Part shown: positions 33,416-42,187 of the stretch, piece by piece | Numbering within the stretch: the first letter of the stretch is position 1 | Layout: each line of letters begins with the position of its first letter | From: Sedimentisphaerales bacterium | GTDB taxonomy: Bacteria > Planctomycetota > Phycisphaerae > Sedimentisphaerales > SM23-30 | Reading direction: 5' to 3' (one strand) | DNA: 64,000 nt | NCBI GenBank assembly: GCA_963666285.1 | Contig: OY762711.1 | Notes under the pieces: generated by a model | The model's input: the letters and a program-made list of their open reading frames with translations, nothing else | What the model was told of the DNA's origin: nothing | Database searches by the model: none | Translations under genes and position numbers: made by a program

Positions 33416-33913
33416 ATGAGTTTCAGGCCAATAATACAATCTCTAAAAAAAAATAGCCGAAAAGAACTGCCCTTGCCAATAATCGGCTGGCGAGAATGGG
33501 TAGGACTTCCTGATTTCGGCATAGACAAGATAAAGGTTAAAGTTGATACAGGAGCAAGGTCTTCATCGCTTCATGCATTTGACCTGGAATACTTTGACCG
33601 TAAAGGAGAAAAGTGGGTTAGATTTCAGGTCCACCCAGTCCAACGTAAACGAGATAAAATTGTTGAGGTTGAAGCCAAAATACTTGAATTCAGATCTGTT
33701 CGCAGTTCAAGCGGAGTTGCCTCTCATCGACCGGTAATTGTCACCAATGTTAACCTGCTGGGACAATGCTGGCCGGTTGAACTCACTTTGGCCAGTAGAG
33801 ATGAAATGGGTTTTCGCATGCTGCTCGGTCGTGAAGCAATTCGTCGCCGATTCCTGGTTAATCCTGGTAAATCATTTTACGGCGGGAGACCCCGTCGCAG
33901 ACAAAAGCTATAA
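33416..33913 (+). CDS. retropepsin-like protease (RimB / 'ATP-dependent zinc protease' family)
   Basis: IGWREW, KVDTGARSSSLH, RDEMGFRMLLGR; directly upstream of rimK. Confidence 0.9.
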   Translation: MSFRPIIQSLKKNSRKELPLPIIGWREWVGLPDFGIDKIKVKVDTGARSSSLHAFDLEYFDRKGEKWVRFQVHPVQRKRDKIVEVEAKILEFRSVRSSSGVASHRPVIVTNVNLLGQCWPVELTLASRDEMGFRMLLGREAIRRRFLVNPGKSFYGGRPRRRQKL

Positions 33914-33949
33914 CAATAGATAACAATAACTAAATAAATAAGGTAATCA

Positions 33950-35233
33950 ATGAAACTTGCGATCCTTTCCTGTGCACCAAAATGTTACAGCACACGTAGA
34001 TTACGTGAAGCTGCGTTGCAGCGCGGACACAATGTAAAAGTTCTCAACACGGTCAAATTTGCAATTGACCTTGAGCAAGGAAATCCGGATTTATATTTTC
34101 GGCAGAAGCATCTATCCCATTATGACGCGGCCCTACCACGAATTGGAGCGTCAATTACATATTTCGGTACAGCGGTGGTTCGGCAGTTTGAACAGATGGA
34201 CGTTTTTTGTGCAAACTCTTCAATGGGAATATCCAATTCCCGCGACAAACTGCGATGCCTACAGATTCTCAGCAAACATAGAATCGGGATCCCTCAAACT
34301 ACATTTGTACGCGACAGACGTGATGTACTGCCGGCTATTGAAAGAGTGGGCGGCGCACCGGTAATTATCAAATTACTTGAAGGAACACAGGGGCTAGGTG
34401 TTTTACTGGCAGAATCAGTTAAATCGGCAGAAGCAATAATAGAACTGCTGCAAAGCCAAAAACAGAATGTGTTAATCCAGAAATTTGTAGCAGAAAGCAA
34501 AGGACGCGATATCAGAGCCTTTGTTGTCGGTGACCAGGTTGTCGGTGCAATGCGACGTGTAGCCCAGGGTCATGAGTTTCGCAGCAATCTACATCGGGGT
34601 GGAATCTCAGAACCTGTTATCCTGGATGAACTTTATCGGGAAACCGCGATCAGAGCTGCTCAAATAATGGGCTTGAAAATTGCCGGTGTTGATCTGCTCG
34701 AAGGTAAAGACGGACCACAGATAATAGAGGTAAATTCATCTCCGGGATTAGAAGGGATTGAAGGCAGCACCCAGCTGGATATCGCAGGTTCGATAATCGA
34801 TTATATAGCCGCCCAGGTAAACTTCCCAGAAATTGATTTAAGACAAAGACTGACCGTAAGTCGCGGTTACGGGGTAGCAGAAATATACATACCCGAAGGC
34901 TCAATCTATGTGGGTAAAACAATCCAGGATTCAGGTTTACGTGATAGAGACATTTCCGTACTCACCCTGTACCGGCATACTACCGTAATACCAAACCCAT
35001 TCCACCATAGAGTACTGGAAGCCGGAGATCGGCTGCTTTGTTTTGGCAAACTGGAATTAATGCGTGATTTGATCCCGAAAAAAGCACATCGGAAACGTAT
35101 TCCAAAGGTTAAGGATTTGCCTGACCTGCCGGTTGCAGATGAAGTATATAAAGAGTCCGGCAAAGAAGATAGTGTTTTTATCTCTGTTGATAGTGAAGCC
35201 ACAACAAATGAAAAAGACTCCGCAACAAATTGA
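33950..35233 (+). CDS. rimK: RimK alpha-L-glutamate ligase with C-terminal TrkA-C (RCK-C) domain
   Basis: YSTRRL, PRIGAS, EGTQG, FRSNLHRGG, EVNSSPGLEGIE; extra S.YVGKTI..SGLR..GDRLL domain. Confidence 0.9.
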   Translation: MKLAILSCAPKCYSTRRLREAALQRGHNVKVLNTVKFAIDLEQGNPDLYFRQKHLSHYDAALPRIGASITYFGTAVVRQFEQMDVFCANSSMGISNSRDKLRCLQILSKHRIGIPQTTFVRDRRDVLPAIERVGGAPVIIKLLEGTQGLGVLLAESVKSAEAIIELLQSQKQNVLIQKFVAESKGRDIRAFVVGDQVVGAMRRVAQGHEFRSNLHRGGISEPVILDELYRETAIRAAQIMGLKIAGVDLLEGKDGPQIIEVNSSPGLEGIEGSTQLDIAGSIIDYIAAQVNFPEIDLRQRLTVSRGYGVAEIYIPEGSIYVGKTIQDSGLRDRDISVLTLYRHTTVIPNPFHHRVLEAGDRLLCFGKLELMRDLIPKKAHRKRIPKVKDLPDLPVADEVYKESGKEDSVFISVDSEATTNEKDSATN

Positions 35234-36293
35234 TAACGACCAATGGTTTGGTGCTACGATACTTCCCGGCGAATCGAAAGATGTCAATTTACCGGTTAGC
35301 GAAAGCTATAGTGGTATGACGGTTCAAATCCAGATACAGGTTCACCGGGCAATTGAAGATGGCCCGACTATTTTCATTGCAGCCGCTTTGCATGGCGATG
35401 AAATCAACGGAACCGGCATTATACGCCAACTGATAAAAGATGATGAATTCAATTTACGAAAAGGAACTGTAGTACTTGTACCAGTACTAAATTTACTTGC
35501 CTTTGACCGTCACTCTCGATATTTGCCAGATCGCCGAGACCTGAACAGATGTTTTCCAGGTTTAGAAAACGGCAGCCTTGCCAGCCGTATGGCCAATAGA
35601 ATATTCACTGAAATTGTTCACCGCTGCGATTACGGAATTGATCTGCATACCGCTTCAGTTCGGCGTACCAACTATCCTAACGTAAGAGGCAATATGTCAG
35701 ATCCGCAAGTACGGCAGCTTGCCAAATGTTTCGGCACTGAGCTTATACTAAACAGTAAAGGTCCCAAAGGATCATTTCGGCGAGAGGCCTGCCAGGCCGG
35801 ATGCCCAACAATAATTATGGAAGGCGGAGAAGTCTGGAAAGTTGAACCAGGAATTGTAAAAACCGGAGTTCGGGGCATAAAAAATGTGTTGCGTCATTTT
35901 GAAATGATTGAAGGCACAATAGAAAGTCCAGAGTTTCAAGTTGTTATCGAAACTTCCAGGTGGATTAGAGCTGAAAAAGGCGGATTTCTACAATTTCATG
36001 TGAAACCTGGCGATATGGTAGAAAAAGGTCAGCCGTTAGTTACAAATTCAACACTGCTCGGACATGATTTCAGCACACTTTACTCTCCGTTCAATGCCGT
36101 TGTGATCGGCATGACCAGTTTGCCGGCGATAAGTCCGGGTGAACCCATTTGCAACCTTGGCAAATTACCAAAGAATTATAAGCCGTTAGAACTTAATAAA
36201 TTACGTTCTGAAGAAGATGGGCTGGAACAAAGAGTATCCGAGGAGCTTTCTTCAAACATATTAGTTGTAGACCATTCCGATTTGAACCAATAA
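35208..36293 (+). CDS. M14 / succinylglutamate desuccinylase-aspartoacylase family peptidase
   Basis: HGDEING, DLNRCFPG, IDLHT, EGGE; C-terminal biotinyl-like domain. Confidence 0.9.
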   Translation: MKKTPQQIDNDQWFGATILPGESKDVNLPVSESYSGMTVQIQIQVHRAIEDGPTIFIAAALHGDEINGTGIIRQLIKDDEFNLRKGTVVLVPVLNLLAFDRHSRYLPDRRDLNRCFPGLENGSLASRMANRIFTEIVHRCDYGIDLHTASVRRTNYPNVRGNMSDPQVRQLAKCFGTELILNSKGPKGSFRREACQAGCPTIIMEGGEVWKVEPGIVKTGVRGIKNVLRHFEMIEGTIESPEFQVVIETSRWIRAEKGGFLQFHVKPGDMVEKGQPLVTNSTLLGHDFSTLYSPFNAVVIGMTSLPAISPGEPICNLGKLPKNYKPLELNKLRSEEDGLEQRVSEELSSNILVVDHSDLNQ

Positions 36294-36524: not shown

Positions 36525-38435
36525 TCATTTTATATTGAGTGTGCTGTTAACTGCCATCCTTTCCTGTGCCGCTTCAATAATCATAAGAAGCAGCTCAGAG
36601 TATGATATACCTGCCAGGCCGGCCATGATATTCATTTTACCATCCCAGCACCAGCCAGGATTCGGGTTAACTTCCAGCAGTTTTATCTTGCCCTTACTGT
36701 CGGCACGAAAATCAAACCTGGCATAGTCCCGGCAACCGCAACGCTCAAACAGCAGGTTAACATAGTCATACAGTTTGGAAAGCTCATGATCTTTAAGTTG
36801 AGCTTTTTTATACTTGATTTTGTCCCAGTAAGGAGAGTCCGGCATCCACTTGGACTCATAGCCAAGAATATGCGGCAGACCGTCCGGTAAATTACTGAAA
36901 TCGAATTCCAGCGGCGGCAGAATTTTATAGCTCATGCCGGGGTTTCCGATTACTCCGACAGTATATTCCTTTCCACTGAGGTATTCTTCTATCAACAGCG
37001 GCCTACCGGGCAGAGTTTCACGCAGCTTGTCGATATATTCAACCAGCTCTTCAGAGTTGTAAACTACCGCATTTTGGGTAATACCGATACTGGAATCGCC
37101 AAAGTTAGGCTTTACCAGTGCCGGGAAAACTGATGGTATTGTTGCTGCATTGTCATCGGTACTGAAATATGTCTCCAGCGGTACAGGTATCTCGACCGAA
37201 TCTGCAATTGAGCGTATCAGGGATTTATTATAACAGAATCCCAGTGCTGCCGGACCGGCACCGGTATAAGGCACCTGGAAAGTTTCAAGCATAGCCGGAA
37301 CATGCAGTTCCATAAATGCATCATTATTATATCCTTCATCGCATAGATTAAAAACAAACTGCGGCGGATTACATCTTAGCTGGTTAATTAAAGCTGCATG
37401 GTTATCCATATATTCAAAAGAATAGTCAGACAGCTCTCCTAAGGCAGACTTCAGCTTATTGATCGTATCAAAATCCTCGGAATTAAACTGGCCGTTTAAT
37501 TTTACTGTATCCGGCAAAGACGGGTCACCGAGCAGAACCGTTACATCTTTAAAGAGCGGCCCTTTCTTTTTAGCTTTTTTGACCTTATGCGGAGCTGTTG
37601 CAGTCAGAAAAATACGGTGGGCCATCATACCAAGATCCTGATTGCGGTCCGACTCGGAAGAATGCTCGGAATGGATACGGATATTCATAAAGCCAACATC
37701 ACTTAAAAGCTTATAGATCCGCTCCCTGTCATATAGCCTTTCGGCATAGAACTGGTCGGCAATTACCCCTTTTTCAGAGTCAACAATGACTTCGCGTGAA
37801 ATAAGCCTGAAACCATCATCGGCAAGAGAACGTTCCCGGCAGACAAAATGGCCGGAATCGATCCACTCCCAGCTGCGACGTTCAAAATTACTGCTCATCC
37901 AGTCACCATCAACCAGGTCCATGGCAAGAATACCACCAGAATTCAATACCCTCTTGATCGACTCCAGAACGGCAACATCATCTTCTTCACGCTCAAAATA
38001 GCCAAAAGAATTACCCATAACAGAGACACATTGGAACGAGTTTTCGGCAAACCTGAATTTTCGAGCATCTCCTTCGTGAAAAGAAATATCCAGTTTCTCA
38101 CTTTTAGCTCGTTTCTTCGCCAGCCGGATAAGATATCTTGAACGGTCCAGACCGGAAACATTAGCATACCCCCTGCGTGCCAGTTCGATACTGTGCCTGC
38201 CCTGACCGCAGCATAAATCGAGAATAGAGTCTCCAGGCAAAATACCCGTAGAATTTATCAGCAGGTCCACATCATTCCGAGTATTCTGGTTGTTTTCGAC
38301 AACATCGCCATCCGTTTTAAGATATAAAGAATTAAACAGCTTTTGCCACCAGTCGGTCGGCAGGTGTCTCTCTAAATCAGAAATCGGACCAAGGGTTTTA
38401 ACTCCAGCAGCTTCACCATTACGTTTTTTTGCCAT
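36525..38435 (-). CDS. class I SAM methyltransferase fused to D-Ala-D-Ala-ligase-like ATP-grasp domain
   Basis: LDLCCGQGRH, GDAR, NSFGY; FNLCD, PYTG, KP..GDSSIGI, EEYLSG.E, RDYARFD, LEVNPNP. Confidence 0.88.
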   Translation of the reverse strand: MAKKRNGEAAGVKTLGPISDLERHLPTDWWQKLFNSLYLKTDGDVVENNQNTRNDVDLLINSTGILPGDSILDLCCGQGRHSIELARRGYANVSGLDRSRYLIRLAKKRAKSEKLDISFHEGDARKFRFAENSFQCVSVMGNSFGYFEREEDDVAVLESIKRVLNSGGILAMDLVDGDWMSSNFERRSWEWIDSGHFVCRERSLADDGFRLISREVIVDSEKGVIADQFYAERLYDRERIYKLLSDVGFMNIRIHSEHSSESDRNQDLGMMAHRIFLTATAPHKVKKAKKKGPLFKDVTVLLGDPSLPDTVKLNGQFNSEDFDTINKLKSALGELSDYSFEYMDNHAALINQLRCNPPQFVFNLCDEGYNNDAFMELHVPAMLETFQVPYTGAGPAALGFCYNKSLIRSIADSVEIPVPLETYFSTDDNAATIPSVFPALVKPNFGDSSIGITQNAVVYNSEELVEYIDKLRETLPGRPLLIEEYLSGKEYTVGVIGNPGMSYKILPPLEFDFSNLPDGLPHILGYESKWMPDSPYWDKIKYKKAQLKDHELSKLYDYVNLLFERCGCRDYARFDFRADSKGKIKLLEVNPNPGWCWDGKMNIMAGLAGISYSELLLMIIEAAQERMAVNSTLNIK

Positions 38436-38492
38436 CTTTTTGCCTTATAATAGTAGTTTATTTTATAAACAAATTTTTAGGGAAAATCTCTT

Positions 38493-38509
38493 TGCAAATC
38501 ACATGCCAA
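38493..38509 (-). promoter_or_regulatory. sigma54 (-24/-12) promoter
   Basis: minus strand TTGGCATGTGATTTGCA, exact GG-N10-GC, about 60 bp before the MTase-ligase start. Confidence 0.8.
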
Positions 38510-38646
38510 AAAAAACATCTTTTGCCATACTAAACTGTTATTCCGGCTATCAGTCTTTATATCAGGACTTTATTATATTTTCAGTGATGAAGAGTTATCT
38601 TTATAAATATCAAAGAACTAAATTTGAGTAGCAAATACATCAAAAA

Positions 38647-38662
38647 CGGAATTTAGATTCCG
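38647..38662. promoter_or_regulatory. putative enhancer (UAS) for the adjacent bEBP
   Basis: CGGAA-TTTAGA-TTCCG about 140 bp upstream of the -24 box; same motif as 40245-40283. Confidence 0.65.
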
Positions 38663-38674
38663 ATATCTTTCGTA

Positions 38675-40102
38675 TTATTTGTAATCATTTTTATTCAGTT
38701 TGTAATATTTCATCTTATTAAAAAGAGTACGCTGGTCAATACCTGCCTTTTGGGCTGTCTTGTCTATTCGACCTTCATTCAGCCTAAGCAAAGAAGCCAG
38801 ATATACCGGTTCAAACTGTTCGATCAATGCCTTATTAGCATCCTTGAGAGGTTTTTTAAGCCATTTATCAGGTATGGTAGCTTCGTCGAGGTTAATTTTT
38901 TTAGATATTGCCGGTGATTGCGGCAAAACCAGCATACCGGTCAACGAAGCCGGTAAATCCTCAGGAGTAATAATATCCGTTTCAGCCAGCAGCATAGCAC
39001 GCTCTATAATATTAATCAATTCCCTGACATTTCCAGGCCAGTTATAATCCACCAGCATATTCAAAGAGGCGTCATCTATGCCGGTAACATCACTGTTTAT
39101 TCTTGGGCCAAGATATCGAATATAGCTTTCTACCAGTTCAGGAATATCTTCTTTGCGGTCTCGCAGCGGAGGTATTGTTAGTGAGACTACATTCAACCGG
39201 TAAAATAAATCCTGACGAAACCTCTTTGCCTGCGCCTCTTTTTCCAGGTCGCGATTGGTCGCCGCCATAATCCTGACATCAATTGGAATCGGCTTTTCAC
39301 TACCAAGGCTTTTAATCTCTCTATTCTCCAGTACCCTCAATAATTTCACCTGCAAATGCAGCGGCATATCGCCAATTTCATCTAAAAATAATGTCCCCTG
39401 ATGTGCCATTTCAAAGCAGCCTCTTCGCGACCTGGCAGCACCTGTAAAAGCACCTAATTCATGACCAAAAAGTTCACTTTCCAACAGGTTTTCCGGCAAT
39501 GCCCCGCAATTTACGGCAATAAATGCTCCGTCTGAACGCGAGCTCTCTGAGTGTATCGCATGGGCCAGCCTTTCTTTACCAACGCCGGTTTCCCCCAGTA
39601 TCAAAACAGTAGAATTACTTTTGACAACCCTTCTTGCTATTCGCGTAAACTCTCTCATTGCAAGACTTTGTGAAACAAAATCTTCTAAGGAAGGGTCGGC
39701 CAGCTCTTTTCTCTTAGAAAAATTAGCCTCGGCAATCAGACGGCTTTTCTCTAAAAGAGAACTTACAATCAACTTCATTTTTCGTGGCGTAAAATTGCGA
39801 TATAATACGGCATCGAATCCGGAAGCTAATAGCATGGCATGAGTTTCATTGTCTTTACTGCTGGTAATGTTGACAAACACCGGTGCTGCTGTCTCATTTT
39901 TTATCTCCTGGATATCTTTCAGTATTCTGCGGGAAATCAGATCATGATCTATAAACATAGCATCACATGAATCACTCGAAAAATGGTCAGAGATATCTTC
40001 CGGTTCAACATCCGTAACTGTCGTCTCAAATTCTGCCAAAAGGTTCTTAATCTTCTTGCGTAATTTATCTTCCTGGATTGCCAGGGCAACTCTCTGCAGC
40101 AT
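38675..40102 (-). CDS. sigma54-dependent Fis-family activator (REC-like, AAA+, HTH)
   Basis: GETGVGKE, ESELFGH..GAFTGA, LFLDEIG, FRQDLFYRL, WPGNVREL, C-terminal HTH. Confidence 0.95.
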   Translation of the reverse strand: MLQRVALAIQEDKLRKKIKNLLAEFETTVTDVEPEDISDHFSSDSCDAMFIDHDLISRRILKDIQEIKNETAAPVFVNITSSKDNETHAMLLASGFDAVLYRNFTPRKMKLIVSSLLEKSRLIAEANFSKRKELADPSLEDFVSQSLAMREFTRIARRVVKSNSTVLILGETGVGKERLAHAIHSESSRSDGAFIAVNCGALPENLLESELFGHELGAFTGAARSRRGCFEMAHQGTLFLDEIGDMPLHLQVKLLRVLENREIKSLGSEKPIPIDVRIMAATNRDLEKEAQAKRFRQDLFYRLNVVSLTIPPLRDRKEDIPELVESYIRYLGPRINSDVTGIDDASLNMLVDYNWPGNVRELINIIERAMLLAETDIITPEDLPASLTGMLVLPQSPAISKKINLDEATIPDKWLKKPLKDANKALIEQFEPVYLASLLRLNEGRIDKTAQKAGIDQRTLFNKMKYYKLNKNDYK

Positions 40103-40240
40103 ACCTTAAACCTCATAAATATTATTGTTATCCTACATCTAAACATAAAAAATGCCTATTGCTCGCCAAACATGGATAAATGAAACTCGTATCCAGGTAA
40201 AACACGAACGAGCTAAATATAGCTAACACAATACCACCCT

Positions 40241-40283
40241 ATATCGGAATTATAATTCCGATATTTTCGGAAGTCAATTACCG
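40241..40283. promoter_or_regulatory. tandem putative enhancer sites
   Basis: perfect 24-bp palindrome ATATCGGAATTATAATTCCGATAT plus CGGAA-GTCAAT-TACCG 23 bp later. Confidence 0.7.
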
Positions 40284-40380
40284 ATTATTTTTTTTTATTC
40301 GTCACCCTCCAAATACTTCCACCGCTAATAAACACTTATAATATAAACACTTAAAAAAACAATTTATCAACTCAACGGTT

Positions 40381-40397
40381 TTGGCACAGCAATTGTA
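40381..40397 (+). promoter_or_regulatory. sigma54 (-24/-12) promoter
   Basis: TTGGCACAGCAATTGTA: canonical -24 box, correct spacing, -12 variant GT. Confidence 0.65.
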
Positions 40398-40448
40398 TTT
40401 TGAAAAATCCGAAAATTATCAAAGAATAGAAATCGCAGGTATAACAAT

Positions 40449-40556
40449 ATGCAAAAGAAAAGTGTTAAAACCAAAACAAAAAGTCAGGTAAAGACAAACC
40501 AGAGGAAAACCAATCCAAAAGAAAATTGTTTTAGACCTGAAAGACCAAAACGGTAA
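40449..40556 (+). CDS. putative 35-aa basic peptide (MQKKSVKTKTKSQVKTNQRKTNPKENCFRPERPKR)
   Basis: ATG preceded by GCAGGT, first ORF after the sigma54 promoter; absent from the ORF track (short). Confidence 0.4.
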   Translation: MQKKSVKTKTKSQVKTNQRKTNPKENCFRPERPKR

Positions 40557-40620
40557 TAAAAAAACATAATAATCGTGTCACTTTTTATTTTATTACTCTA
40601 ATTTACGAAAGGTTATTTAA

Positions 40621-40911
40621 ATGGCAGAACAAAAAAAGACAACAGCGAAAAAGGCTACAGCAAAAAAATCTGTAAAGAAAGCTGCTCCTAAGGCTGCTAA
40701 GAAAGCTGTAAAGAAGGCTGCTCCTAAGGCTGCTAAGAAAGCTGTAAAGAAAGCCGCTCCAAAGGCTGCTAAAAAAGCTGTAAAGAAGGCTGCTCCTAAG
40801 GCTGCTAAAAAAGCTGTAAAGAAGGCCGCTCCTAAGGCTGCTAAAAAAGCTGTAAAGAAAGCCGCTCCTAAGGCTGCTAAGAAAGCTGCTCCAAAAGCTG
40901 TAAAGAAATAA
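40621..40911 (+). CDS. histone H1-like (Hc2/AlgP-tail type) Lys/Ala/Pro repeat protein
   Basis: five full KKAAPKAAKKAV units plus partial ones, 39 of 96 residues Lys; 36-bp repeats differ at synonymous positions; AAAGG RBS. Confidence 0.85.
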   Translation: MAEQKKTTAKKATAKKSVKKAAPKAAKKAVKKAAPKAAKKAVKKAAPKAAKKAVKKAAPKAAKKAVKKAAPKAAKKAVKKAAPKAAKKAAPKAVKK

Positions 40912-40948: not shown

Positions 40949-41088
40949 GTGTCAAAAGGAAAAGAACAAAAGAAGCTATTATAAAATAGCAAACTGGAGT
41001 TTCGGGGGGTCGTCAAATAACGGCCCCCCACTATTTTATAGTGTATAATTTCAAATTATAAAGAAGCAGAAAAAAGAAAGATTGAAAT

Positions 41089-41451
41089 ATGAAAGTAGTA
41101 ATGTCAACAGATTCACAATACCTGGACGATGAGATTGCCGTTCGGTTCGGCAGAGGGAAATATCTTATCTTTCTAAATACCGAAACCGGAGAGTATGAAA
41201 CATATCCTAACCTGTATCTAAATTTAAAGGGCGAAGTAGATTCTCAACTGGTTAAATCCCTGTCCCGAAGGAAGATCCAAGAGGCAGTTTCCGGATACTG
41301 GTCAGAATTTGATAAGGCTTCCATGCAAAAAATGGGTATCAATACCGTATCAATACCAAAACTGTCCTGTTGCGATGCAATCTCACATCTCTACAAAATT
41401 AGTATTAACTATTGCAAGGATAATGAGAAAAAACCTGCTAATAACGGCTAA
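41089..41451 (+). CDS. NifB/NifX (FeMo-co binding) family protein, divergent
   Basis: N-terminal MKVVMS..RFGRGKYLIF pattern and size. Confidence 0.6.
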   Translation: MKVVMSTDSQYLDDEIAVRFGRGKYLIFLNTETGEYETYPNLYLNLKGEVDSQLVKSLSRRKIQEAVSGYWSEFDKASMQKMGINTVSIPKLSCCDAISHLYKISINYCKDNEKKPANNG

Positions 41452-41551: not shown

Positions 41552-42187
41552 CTATTTGCATTTACTGCCCCTGCCAACCAGGCTTTTACCGGCGGGTTTT
41601 GCCAGGCTACGATACAATGGGAATTCTCCCTCGTTAACAAAAAACACTTCTTCTACGGAATAAAGAGCATTAGGATTGTAATGCTTTATCTGGGCGACCA
41701 CGTTTTTAAGCTGCTTCCTGGGAACAATGGTAAAAATAAGATGGACCGGACCAGATGGGCCTTCAGCCGGTATACTGGTAATATTAAAACCAAAATCTCG
41801 CAACTTTTCGATCAGCTCGGTCGCGGGCACCTTTGTTATCACCCGGATAATAACCTCTCCCAAAGACATCTTGCTGGCAATAAACATACCCACATAATTA
41901 CCAATGGCAAAGCCCCCGGCATAAGCTATATAATAAATGGGATGATTAACGTCTTTGAAGATACGGCCGATAACGGTTACCCAGATCAATATTTCAAAGA
42001 AACCTATCACCGGAGCCCATAATTTATAGCCCTTGGAAACTAGAATAATCCTAACAGTACCAAAACTAACATCAGCAACACGAGCCAGACAAATGATCAG
42101 GGGCAACACTACCCAGGCATACCAGTTGAAACCAGTGTCTAGCAGCAAATTTGACATATAAGGCAATATCCACTCCTCAAGCTGCAT
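41552..42187 (-). CDS. DUF5698/DUF2179 (YebE-like) membrane protein
   Basis: ARVADVSFGTVR, GFFEILIW, YAGGFAIGNYVG, C-terminal PII-like part. Confidence 0.8.
   Translation of the reverse strand: MQLEEWILPYMSNLLLDTGFNWYAWVVLPLIICLARVADVSFGTVRIILVSKGYKLWAPVIGFFEILIWVTVIGRIFKDVNHPIYYIAYAGGFAIGNYVGMFIASKMSLGEVIIRVITKVPATELIEKLRDFGFNITSIPAEGPSGPVHLIFTIVPRKQLKNVVAQIKHYNPNALYSVEEVFFVNEGEFPLYRSLAKPAGKSLVGRGSKCK

Follow-up and report, generated by a model that had tools for sequence, protein, structure and literature searches.

The locus between positions 38,493 and 40,911 of a 64,000-nucleotide stretch of contig OY762711.1 (assembly GCA_963666285.1), from a Sedimentisphaerales bacterium of the phylum Planctomycetota, raises the question of what a sigma54 activator gene flanked by two outward-facing -24/-12 promoters controls, and in response to which kind of signal. 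The whole 64,000-nucleotide stretch is referred to as the window. According to an earlier note, made from the letters of the window, the activator would simultaneously switch on a DNA-condensing histone H1-like protein and a modifying enzyme, a methyltransferase fused to a ligase, as parts of a stress or dormancy chromatin programme. The analysis presented here leads to another answer. The locus is probably a small and local sigma54 regulon, governed by an activator subfamily that operates independently of a kinase, and the target most regularly associated with this subfamily would be a tiny Lys-rich peptide terminated by Pro-Lys-Arg (the PKR peptide), encoded by an open reading frame (ORF) that the earlier note had overlooked.

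The five elements previously located around the activator gene, i.e., two sigma54 boxes and three palindromes, are all present, with the positions and letters initially reported. On the left side, a near-consensus -24/-12 box (38493..38509, minus strand) occurs 74 nt before the ATG of the methyltransferase-ligase gene, and the transcription start inferred from this box falls near 38482, 47 nt upstream of the same ATG. The left palindrome, a predicted enhancer site without strand (38647..38662), is located 13 bp beyond the stop codon of the activator gene. On the right side, the box (40381..40397, plus strand; predicted start near 40408) displays GT instead of GC at -12, as do several relatives, and is preceded by two predicted enhancer sites, equally without strand: a distal site consisting of a perfect 24-bp palindrome (40241..40264, core 40245-40260), which has a 10-bp half in common with the left palindrome, and a proximal site (40268..40283) placed 23 bp from it. 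The distances from palindrome start to box start amount to 136 and 113 bp on the right side and 153 bp on the left side, which supports the sigma54 enhancer geometry proposed for the locus. A scan with the IHF consensus gave no site on the right side and two one-mismatch sites on the left side. Among sequencing runs listed as containing the stretch, none is of RNA; two DNA-type contig runs from a single study, which possibly derive from the source sample and are not independent of it, cover the stretch without any differing letter.

The source genome (6.35 Mb in 4 contigs) contains one rpoN gene and encodes about ten sigma54 activators. Taken by itself, the palindrome is not a rare one, since CGGAA-N6-TTCCG occurs 8 times in the genome, not above the counts for other spacers (3-10). 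The longer form CGGAAT-N4-ATTCCG occurs only twice in 6.35 Mb, both times flanking the activator gene. Among 97 sigma54-like boxes of the genome, three have a palindrome within 250 bp, and two of these three belong to the present locus. A genome-wide scan for box and palindrome pairs, proposed in the earlier note as a check, ranks the two pairs of the locus first and second. It was performed with weight matrices built from relatives, the box matrix excluding the window and the palindrome matrix including it as one of 49 sequences. Scores of 36.7 and 33.6 bits were obtained for these two pairs, against 27.1 bits for the next best pair and 23.0 and 26.1 bits for the best pairs at control distances.

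The two right sites also contain a sigma70-type promoter of the activator gene itself (TTGACT, 17 nt, TATAAT; 11 of 12 positions; 40249..40277, minus strand), with its -10 element inside the distal site and its -35 element inside the proximal site. The start predicted for the activator transcript falls near 40242. The 23-bp spacing of the tandem sites is explained accordingly, because each site carries one of the two elements of this promoter. From this nesting we infer that the activator would repress its own synthesis. Activators of the NtrC type are known to repress themselves in this way, their sites overlapping the sigma70 promoter of their own gene.

The activator gene (38675..40102, minus strand) codes for a protein of 475 amino acids, composed of a degenerate receiver domain (residues 1-130), an AAA+ domain with the GAFTGA motif and a helix-turn-helix. 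The AAA+ domain is readily recognized by Pfam (PF00158, E 1e-70), and the structural model (pLDDT 90) shows a five-stranded receiver fold, the AAA+ domain and a helical C-terminal domain, with NtrC1 (1ny5) and NtrX as the best Foldseek matches. The C-terminal helix-turn-helix is helical in the model and possesses invariant residues among family members. The Pfam scan of the activator detected neither Response_reg (PF00072), nor the FleQ domain PF06490, nor HTH_8, and the protein remains under every NCBIfam cut-off (349 vs 714 bits for AtoC). In a sample of the class, the members of the family match a profile of the N-terminal domain with E < 1e-24 and are thereby set apart from ordinary receivers, for which E lies between 1e-9 and 1e-11. 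Over the receiver, the three closest activators (P0151-P0153) stand at 86, 74 and 64%. Among 62 full-length members, Walker A is retained in all 62 and GAFTGA in 58. The phospho-acceptor position of the receiver is occupied by Asp in 21 and by Ser in 26, Ser, Glu or Ala being found at this site in most members, close relatives included, and the Thr/Ser position is kept in 40. The catalytic Lys is not among the four commonest residues at positions 100-104 of the 62 members, and the acidic pair is unconserved. Other positions are conserved instead, namely W38 (54/62), D47, P74 and G95, together with acidic E/D residues at 83-87. In the ESM Atlas, the N-terminal domain appears receiver-like, and a cluster comprising 45% PF06490 scored 0.89, which serves as a lead only. 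By every sequence test, the protein thus reads as a sigma54 enhancer-binding protein, but neither as a phosphorylated response regulator nor as a FleQ.

The earlier note had also remarked that no cognate kinase is adjacent, and none occurs in the 11 kb around the activator. When 9 kinases of the source genome were used to build a search profile, it detected a histidine-kinase gene in only one of 53 family loci, as compared to 35 of 55 loci of ordinary activators. These controls stem from a search for related loci that retrieved ordinary activators only; they are the 55 of 80 that reach at least 9 kb, and are longer than the family loci (12.3 vs 8.7 kb). The family receiver occurs in 0/55 of the control loci. 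The absence of a kinase is a family trait because of this difference, and the degenerate receiver domain, as judged from its residues, would explain the missing kinase. An alternative would be an orphan response regulator of the NtrC type, phosphorylated by a distant kinase or by acetyl phosphate. The five-stranded receiver fold, the Asp52 and Thr80 retained in the present protein and the Asp of 21 out of 62 members speak for it, but the replacement of Asp by Ser, Glu or Ala in most members, even close relatives, the missing catalytic Lys, the unconserved acidic pair and the lack of a Response_reg match make it unlikely. The kinase-independent reading is kept, and the subfamily apparently has not been described before.

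With respect to known activators, the protein resembles NtrC, NtrC1, ZraR and AtoC by its receiver-AAA+-helix-turn-helix organization, its intact Walker A/B and GAFTGA motifs and its tandem palindromes located 100-150 bp before a -24/-12 box. It differs from them by a receiver devoid of the catalytic Lys and usually of the phospho-Asp, and by a kinase that is almost never adjacent; unlike the NtrC and AtoC types, it possesses its own palindrome consensus and scores under the NCBIfam cut-offs. FleQ and FlrA possess a non-phosphorylated receiver-like domain and are controlled by FleN and c-di-GMP. The present activator shares with them a degenerate receiver, the lack of a kinase and 46-48% identity in the AAA+ domain, but it gives no PF06490 match and its targets are not flagellar. 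In FleQ, the Arg and Asn of the RSLVG and ARNLH motifs are ligands of c-di-GMP; both residues are missing here, because these motifs align with EDFVS and AHAIH.

Members of the family were identified in 6 of 40 relatives, in 19 of 400 genomes from the order and in 35 of 400 from the phylum, as well as in 4/201 and 3/201 genomes of two other phyla; the family activator was not found in three genomes of the same genus. A sigma54 box diverging from the activator gene, 100-520 bp upstream, occurs in 43 of 63 loci (window included) at a score threshold of 12, vs 2 on the opposite strand and 0.7 in shuffled sequences, and in all seven loci from the two other phyla. A de novo palindrome search in the 49 loci whose box scores 11 or more yielded the motif CGGAAnTnnAnTTCCG, with a log-likelihood of 167 vs 17-28 in three shuffles, frequently doubled 23 bp apart. 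The nested sigma70 promoter (score at least 10 of 12) occurs in 19 of these 49 loci, vs none on the opposite strand and 0.8 expected. By sequence comparison, activator, sites, divergent sigma54 promoter and nested sigma70 promoter thus form an architecture conserved in many families within the phylum.

The same architecture is retrieved from DNA alone. A search pattern made of the tandem sites plus TGGCA, derived from the window and its close relatives without any gene information, gave 15 matches in metagenomes, of which 14 adjoin a family activator (the fifteenth has only 15 bp upstream) and 13 are accompanied by a PKR ORF; by eye, these matches reduce to about 10 distinct loci, 8 of them with a PKR ORF. 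A genome-wide pattern search in five near-complete genomes gave four matches, vs one control match. One of the four lies beside a family activator and another beside a distant member accompanied by a CsbD gene, the remaining two being unexplained. The few matches in near-complete genomes, together with the top genome-wide rank of the two pairs, support the self-contained regulon proposed in the earlier note as a local one. Conservation in relatives, which it proposed as a check, holds in part: the activator, the sites and the divergent promoter are conserved, but the arrangement of two outward promoters serving an H1-like gene and a methyltransferase-ligase gene is not. Two outward promoters were also considered as a family rule and rejected, an outward promoter just 3' of the activator gene being present in only 2 of 32 loci. 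Locus L250 (G682:C475:7984-14743) presents four sigma54 promoters around one activator, together with genes for a DksA/TraR zinc-finger protein, PIG-L and a glycosyltransferase, and with a PKR ORF behind the fourth promoter.

The right promoter had been assigned to the H1-like gene. The first ORF behind it is instead the Lys-rich PKR ORF of 35 codons, ending with RPERPKR-stop (40449..40556, plus strand). When a PKR ORF is defined as 15-75 amino acids long, ended by Pro-Lys-Arg-stop and located at most 520 nt from the box, it occurs in 18 of the 49 loci (6 of the 21 in which the motif was first noticed and 12 of the 28 fetched later), vs 0/49 antisense, 1/47 further downstream and 1/4000 in random windows of this genome. 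With post hoc variant ends (PRR, PKG, PYR, AKR, LKR, PCY), the count rises to 28 of 49. When the entire locus is considered, 24 of the 53 family loci contain a PKR ORF, vs a single one of the 55 controls. The codons in use at the end comprise 4 for Pro, 2 for Lys, 6 for Arg and 3 stops, and selection acts on the end of the peptide because all the synonymous codons of Pro-Lys-Arg-stop are used. A conserved RNA element in place of a peptide was rejected on the basis of these codons and of the lack of a common hairpin; Rfam gave a single chance-level snoRNA match under the cut-off. The 19 peptides that were aligned have in common only their richness in Lys and their last three residues. They gave one chance-level Pfam match (E 0.053) and no NCBIfam match, short low-complexity peptides being easily missed by such profiles; no profile of the known small basic proteins bTHX, bS22 and Sra matched any of the 19, and the ESM Atlas offered no usable match for the peptide. 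On this comparative evidence, the commonest first product of the family promoters appears to be a Lys-rich peptide of 20-60 amino acids selected to end with Pro-Lys-Arg, seemingly the most conserved of all their targets. In the subclade L168, L169, L170 and L172, the first-cistron peptides (43-52 amino acids) end with Arg-Pro-Cys-Tyr instead of PKR, and at L248:15594 and L251:5850 a sigma54 promoter facing the 3' end of the activator gene precedes a basic peptide of about 42-48 amino acids, the two peptides having in common a ten-residue end motif, DPRVEPLE followed by RR or KR.

What such a peptide could do may be considered in two ways other than as a plain small product. The ORF might act in cis as a leader, the ribosome stalling at Pro-Lys-Arg-stop in response to a metabolite, e.g., a polyamine or ornithine, and thereby controlling the downstream genes; TnaC and SpeFL are analogues of this kind. 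The conserved residues indeed lie only next to the stop codon, the ORF is often the first in the transcript, and genes of polyamine type recur among the targets. However, the position of the ORF is not fixed, since it comes second in L166, L173 and L208 and behind a parB gene in L164, and it is duplicated in L164 and L174. All three stop codons are used, the downstream genes are unrelated between loci, and no common hairpin follows the stop codon (z below -2 in only 3 of 18). A small product fits better than a leader because the order is free, the copies are doubled and a common hairpin is lacking, so that stalling in cis, a proposal drawn by analogy, is very unlikely.

Alternatively, the C-terminus of the peptide might bind the activator, e.g., the acidic helix-4 region of its receiver, and act as an off-switch, the loss of a short-lived peptide turning the regulon on. 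The inhibition of PspF by PspA provides the analogy: PspF controls a local sigma54 regulon divergent from its own gene and is inhibited by the first product of that regulon. The present locus is comparable in its divergent, self-contained and, as predicted, self-repressing layout, and might offer the PKR peptide a similar role, but PspF lacks an N-terminal domain and PspA is a large coiled-coil protein. That the peptide is the most conserved neighbour of a kinase-less activator, that its conservation is confined to the last three residues and that acidic and aromatic positions are conserved in the receiver (E/D at 83-87; W38 in 54/62) all speak for such a feedback. On the other hand, 31 of the 49 loci lack the peptide behind the divergent promoter and yet retain the same receiver positions, and the two-copy loci L164 and L174 would equally suit a product needed in quantity. 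A complex prediction with the activator (residues 1-392) and the PKR peptide scored 0.00, without folded controls, and was not used as evidence. Feedback by the peptide is consequently considered rather improbable, and a small product of the regulon remains the preferred reading.

The H1-like gene (40621..40911, plus strand) is the second ORF behind the right promoter. Its product of 96 amino acids comprises 39 Lys, 36 Ala and 7 Pro (78% Lys+Ala) and results from 6.3 copies of a 36-bp unit. An intrinsic terminator (41004..41029, plus strand; -21.4 kcal/mol, z -5.0, 0/200 shuffles) ends the transcript of the two peptides. The protein matches 0 families in Pfam and NCBIfam, hence no Hc1/Hc2 profile, and shows no folded domain. 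In the relatives L140, L141, L166, L173 and L175, the corresponding slot is occupied by a Lys-rich ORF of only 12-26 amino acids. L141 is the sister in the tree, with a weak support of 80; its DNA aligns across the promoter and the starts of both ORFs, which are located at +58 and +224, compared to +51 and +223 here. A BLAST comparison of the H1-like protein with the 26-residue ORF of L141 gave no significant match (E 1.1), and their relation is one of position only. The H1-like protein may be viewed as a tiny basic peptide that has grown through repeats. A contig of run X3 departs from the window at 40619, just before the start of the H1-like gene, with 29 other letters absent from this genome, possibly a strain variant or an insertion, seen in that one contig only. 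Elsewhere in the genome, a second H1-like gene (G000 C1:655640) codes for a pure repeat of 115 amino acids before a GTPase gene, at the same place as in the same-genus genome G003, and has no sigma54 box in the 300 bp upstream. At G000 C1:730463 occurs a Lys/Ala-rich protein of 90 amino acids, which has a Lys-rich tail and whose short C-terminal part looks folded and may be a histone fold.

The second gene of the proposed programme (36525..38435, minus strand), the predicted target of the left promoter, codes for a fusion of 636 amino acids between a class I S-adenosylmethionine (SAM, AdoMet) methyltransferase and an ATP-grasp domain resembling D-Ala-D-Ala ligases (Methyltransf_25, E 4e-21; Dala_Dala_lig_C, E 8e-22). 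It misses the Ddl cut-offs (TIGR01205, 106 vs 246 bits; NF002378, 114 vs 243), and the solved structures closest to it belong to small-molecule methyltransferases and to Ddl/Van ligases. The enzyme is very widespread (at least 5577 clusters at E<=1e-100). It occurs in 11 of the 40 relatives; three of these also possess the activator, though on different contigs. Of 12 other genomes having both, 4 show it at most 10 kb from a family activator. Two close homologues of both proteins come from contigs of equal length, which hints at linkage in near relatives. Upstream of the enzyme gene, a sigma54 box was found in 0/9 genomes, and of 7 further ones a single genome (G105) has a box accompanied by a site, 112 nt before the ATG; overall, one of 10 activator-bearing genomes, out of the 12 with the enzyme, and none of 6 without an activator match provide it with its own box. 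The enzyme thus appears as a recurring accessory member, not as a core member. On the opposite strand, and convergent with it, positions 33416-36293 (+) carry genes for a RimB-type peptidase, a RimK-TrkA_C fusion and an AstE-type deacylase, a trio also found behind a family promoter in L229. Used as a DNA query against three same-genus genomes, this region gave only one weak 70-bp match, and may be an island.

The left promoter has a rival explanation of its own, according to which the right promoter alone would be functional, the left palindrome being the terminator of the activator gene or a relic, and the methyltransferase-ligase gene being reached by read-through from the sigma70 promoter. 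The palindrome does lie 13 bp past the stop codon and is followed by a run of five T on the minus strand, the left side possesses a single site, and outward promoters just after the activator are limited to 2 of 32 loci. But the RNA hairpin is weak (-6.8 kcal/mol, z -1.2), half of the palindrome (10 bp) is common with the right distal site, a near-consensus box stands at 153 bp, 74 nt before the ATG, and G105 independently has a box and a site before the same enzyme. A silent left promoter is thus distinctly unlikely, and the reading with two functional promoters is retained.

As regards the chromatin programme, in which the H1-like protein would condense DNA and the methyltransferase-ligase would modify DNA or chromatin during stress or dormancy, each of the two genes is preceded in this genome by a box and a palindrome, the H1-like protein is 78% Lys+Ala, and the enzyme occurs at most 10 kb from a family activator in 4 of 12 genomes, with a box and palindrome in G105. 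The comparative counts go the other way. A long Lys/Ala protein is found in a single one of 53 family loci, the present one, and in 0/15 metagenome loci, 0/7 loci from other phyla and 0/18 methyltransferase-ligase loci; the enzyme has its own box in 1/10 activator-bearing genomes and 0/6 without the activator; the methyltransferase-ligase is far commoner than the activator, and its nearest solved relatives act on small molecules or are Ddl/Van ligases. The H1-like protein resembles Hc1/Hc2, AlgP and the tail of PhaF by its Lys/Ala/Pro repeats in variable number. According to one study, the Chlamydia histone-like gene hctB rises upon activator expression but is driven by sigma28 and has no sigma54 promoter (PMC7482065), unlike the H1-like gene with its predicted direct sigma54 promoter. 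According to another source, Lys/Ala-repeat proteins also serve polyphosphate and polyhydroxyalkanoate granules, AlgP being one that may serve the former (PMC11894788). Nothing was found that ties the methyltransferase-ligase to DNA or to the H1-like protein, and a second H1-like gene shows no box in the 300 bp upstream; the programme was thus not borne out as a conserved one, and is highly doubtful. As far as sequence comparison can tell, the pairing of the two genes looks like a local arrangement and not like the conserved core.

The other genes placed behind family promoters give an idea of what the regulon may be for. Out of 176 candidate ORFs, 129 were scanned, short or doubtful ones being omitted. 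The targets include Hsp20 at 8 loci, GH130 at 5, AdoMet-decarboxylase-like proteins at 4 (with GNAT and ATP-grasp genes), N-formylglutamate amidohydrolases at 2 (GshB-like at 1), and RimB-RimK, a Ddl-like protein and a sigma factor at one locus each; genes for ATP-grasp, RimK, GshB or Ddl ligases occur at 7 loci in total. CsbD, DUF1328 and rubredoxin are encoded once each by first cistrons. CsbD-like and DUF1328 genes are listed as under RpoS control in Salmonella (PMC5437024). The target set suggests a small stress regulon, and the Hsp20, CsbD and DUF1328 targets would support the stress-type output anticipated in the earlier note. As in the regulons of RpoS, sigmaB and EcfG, small targets such as CsbD/YjbJ and DUF1328/YtjA (PMC5437024) are found together with Hsp20; unlike in these regulons, a sigma54 activator is in charge, each locus has one to four promoters, and CsbD and DUF1328 appear once each.

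In the mechanism proposed here, activator dimers would occupy the tandem sites and, once bound, cover the activator's own -35 and -10 elements, which would result in self-repression. A non-phosphoryl input, either a ligand or a protein, would release the degenerate receiver, and the sigma54 promoters would be opened. The right promoter would give a short transcript, ending at the terminator, that encodes the PKR peptide together with the repeat-expanded Lys/Ala peptide, and the left promoter would give the methyltransferase-ligase, one of several amide-ligase modules recruited by the activator family. Judging from gene content, the likeliest purpose would be protection in stress or growth arrest, the basic peptides possibly binding polyanions such as nucleic acid, the ribosome or polyphosphate, and a partner reading the free PKR end. 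A wider proposal, to which we attach limited and clearly tentative credence, is that of an undescribed stress circuit of Planctomycetota, under sigma54 and a kinase-less activator, that produces Lys-rich peptides of 20-60 amino acids whose free PKR end would be a recognition signal, read by the activator (as a feedback sensor of translation or proteolysis), by the ribosome or by the co-regulated ligases and peptidases, the H1-like protein being such a peptide midway in its growth into a nucleoid-type protein. The degrees of confidence given to this reading and to its rivals overlap and need not sum to one.

Several points weigh against the reading as a whole. The targets differ widely and more than half of the scanned ORFs have no Pfam family; CsbD and DUF1328 were each encountered once, the activator next to CsbD being a distant member (45 bits). 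The sigma54 box score and its thresholds (11 and 12, the latter for the 43/63 count) are hand-made. The present receiver retains Asp52 and Thr80, so phosphorylation is possible in this organism. A strict PKR ORF is lacking behind the divergent promoter in 31 of 49 loci and is found in 0/7 loci from the other phyla, which means that a locus can do without the peptide. Kinship among the loci also counts, since a quick tree needs 11 changes of the PKR label (at least 6 of them forced) and the label is clustered.

The locus nevertheless offers a testable description that includes the activator, the operator consensus, the predicted self-repression and the promoter geometry, and it would lend itself to reconstruction as an E. 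coli reporter. About 9% of the genomes sampled within the phylum, and a few from two other phyla, contain the activator subfamily, which databases label as AtoC/NtrC-type response regulators, though it is seemingly kinase-independent. The PKR ORFs represent a family of very small genes devoid of a Pfam or NCBIfam profile, whose conserved end implies some reader. The organization of stress responses in Planctomycetota and the roles of their many Lys-rich proteins are poorly known. No description of the subfamily, its palindrome or the PKR peptides was found in a literature search that left most subscription journals outside its reach. The main text of a survey of sigma54 regulons mentions neither a histone, nor polyamine, RimK or a small protein, and its supplement of sigma54 promoter predictions could list such promoters (PMC12316311).

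Some further features of the family and of the window deserve mention. A subclade consisting of L127, L129, L135, L136, L137, L268 and L269, which extends outside the phylum, is characterized by an operon of AdoMet-decarboxylase-like, GNAT, ATP-grasp and decarboxylase genes. In L144, L146, L219, L222, L223, L230, L234 and L235, small peptides are followed by a recurring target of about 110-140 amino acids, with a signal-peptide-like start and no Pfam family. In the window, an ORF of 120 amino acids without Pfam family occurs behind the terminator (41089-41451, plus strand). It is followed on the minus strand (41552-42187) by the gene for a DUF5698/DUF2179 membrane protein, homologues of which are found near family activators in L164, L166, L211 and L249.

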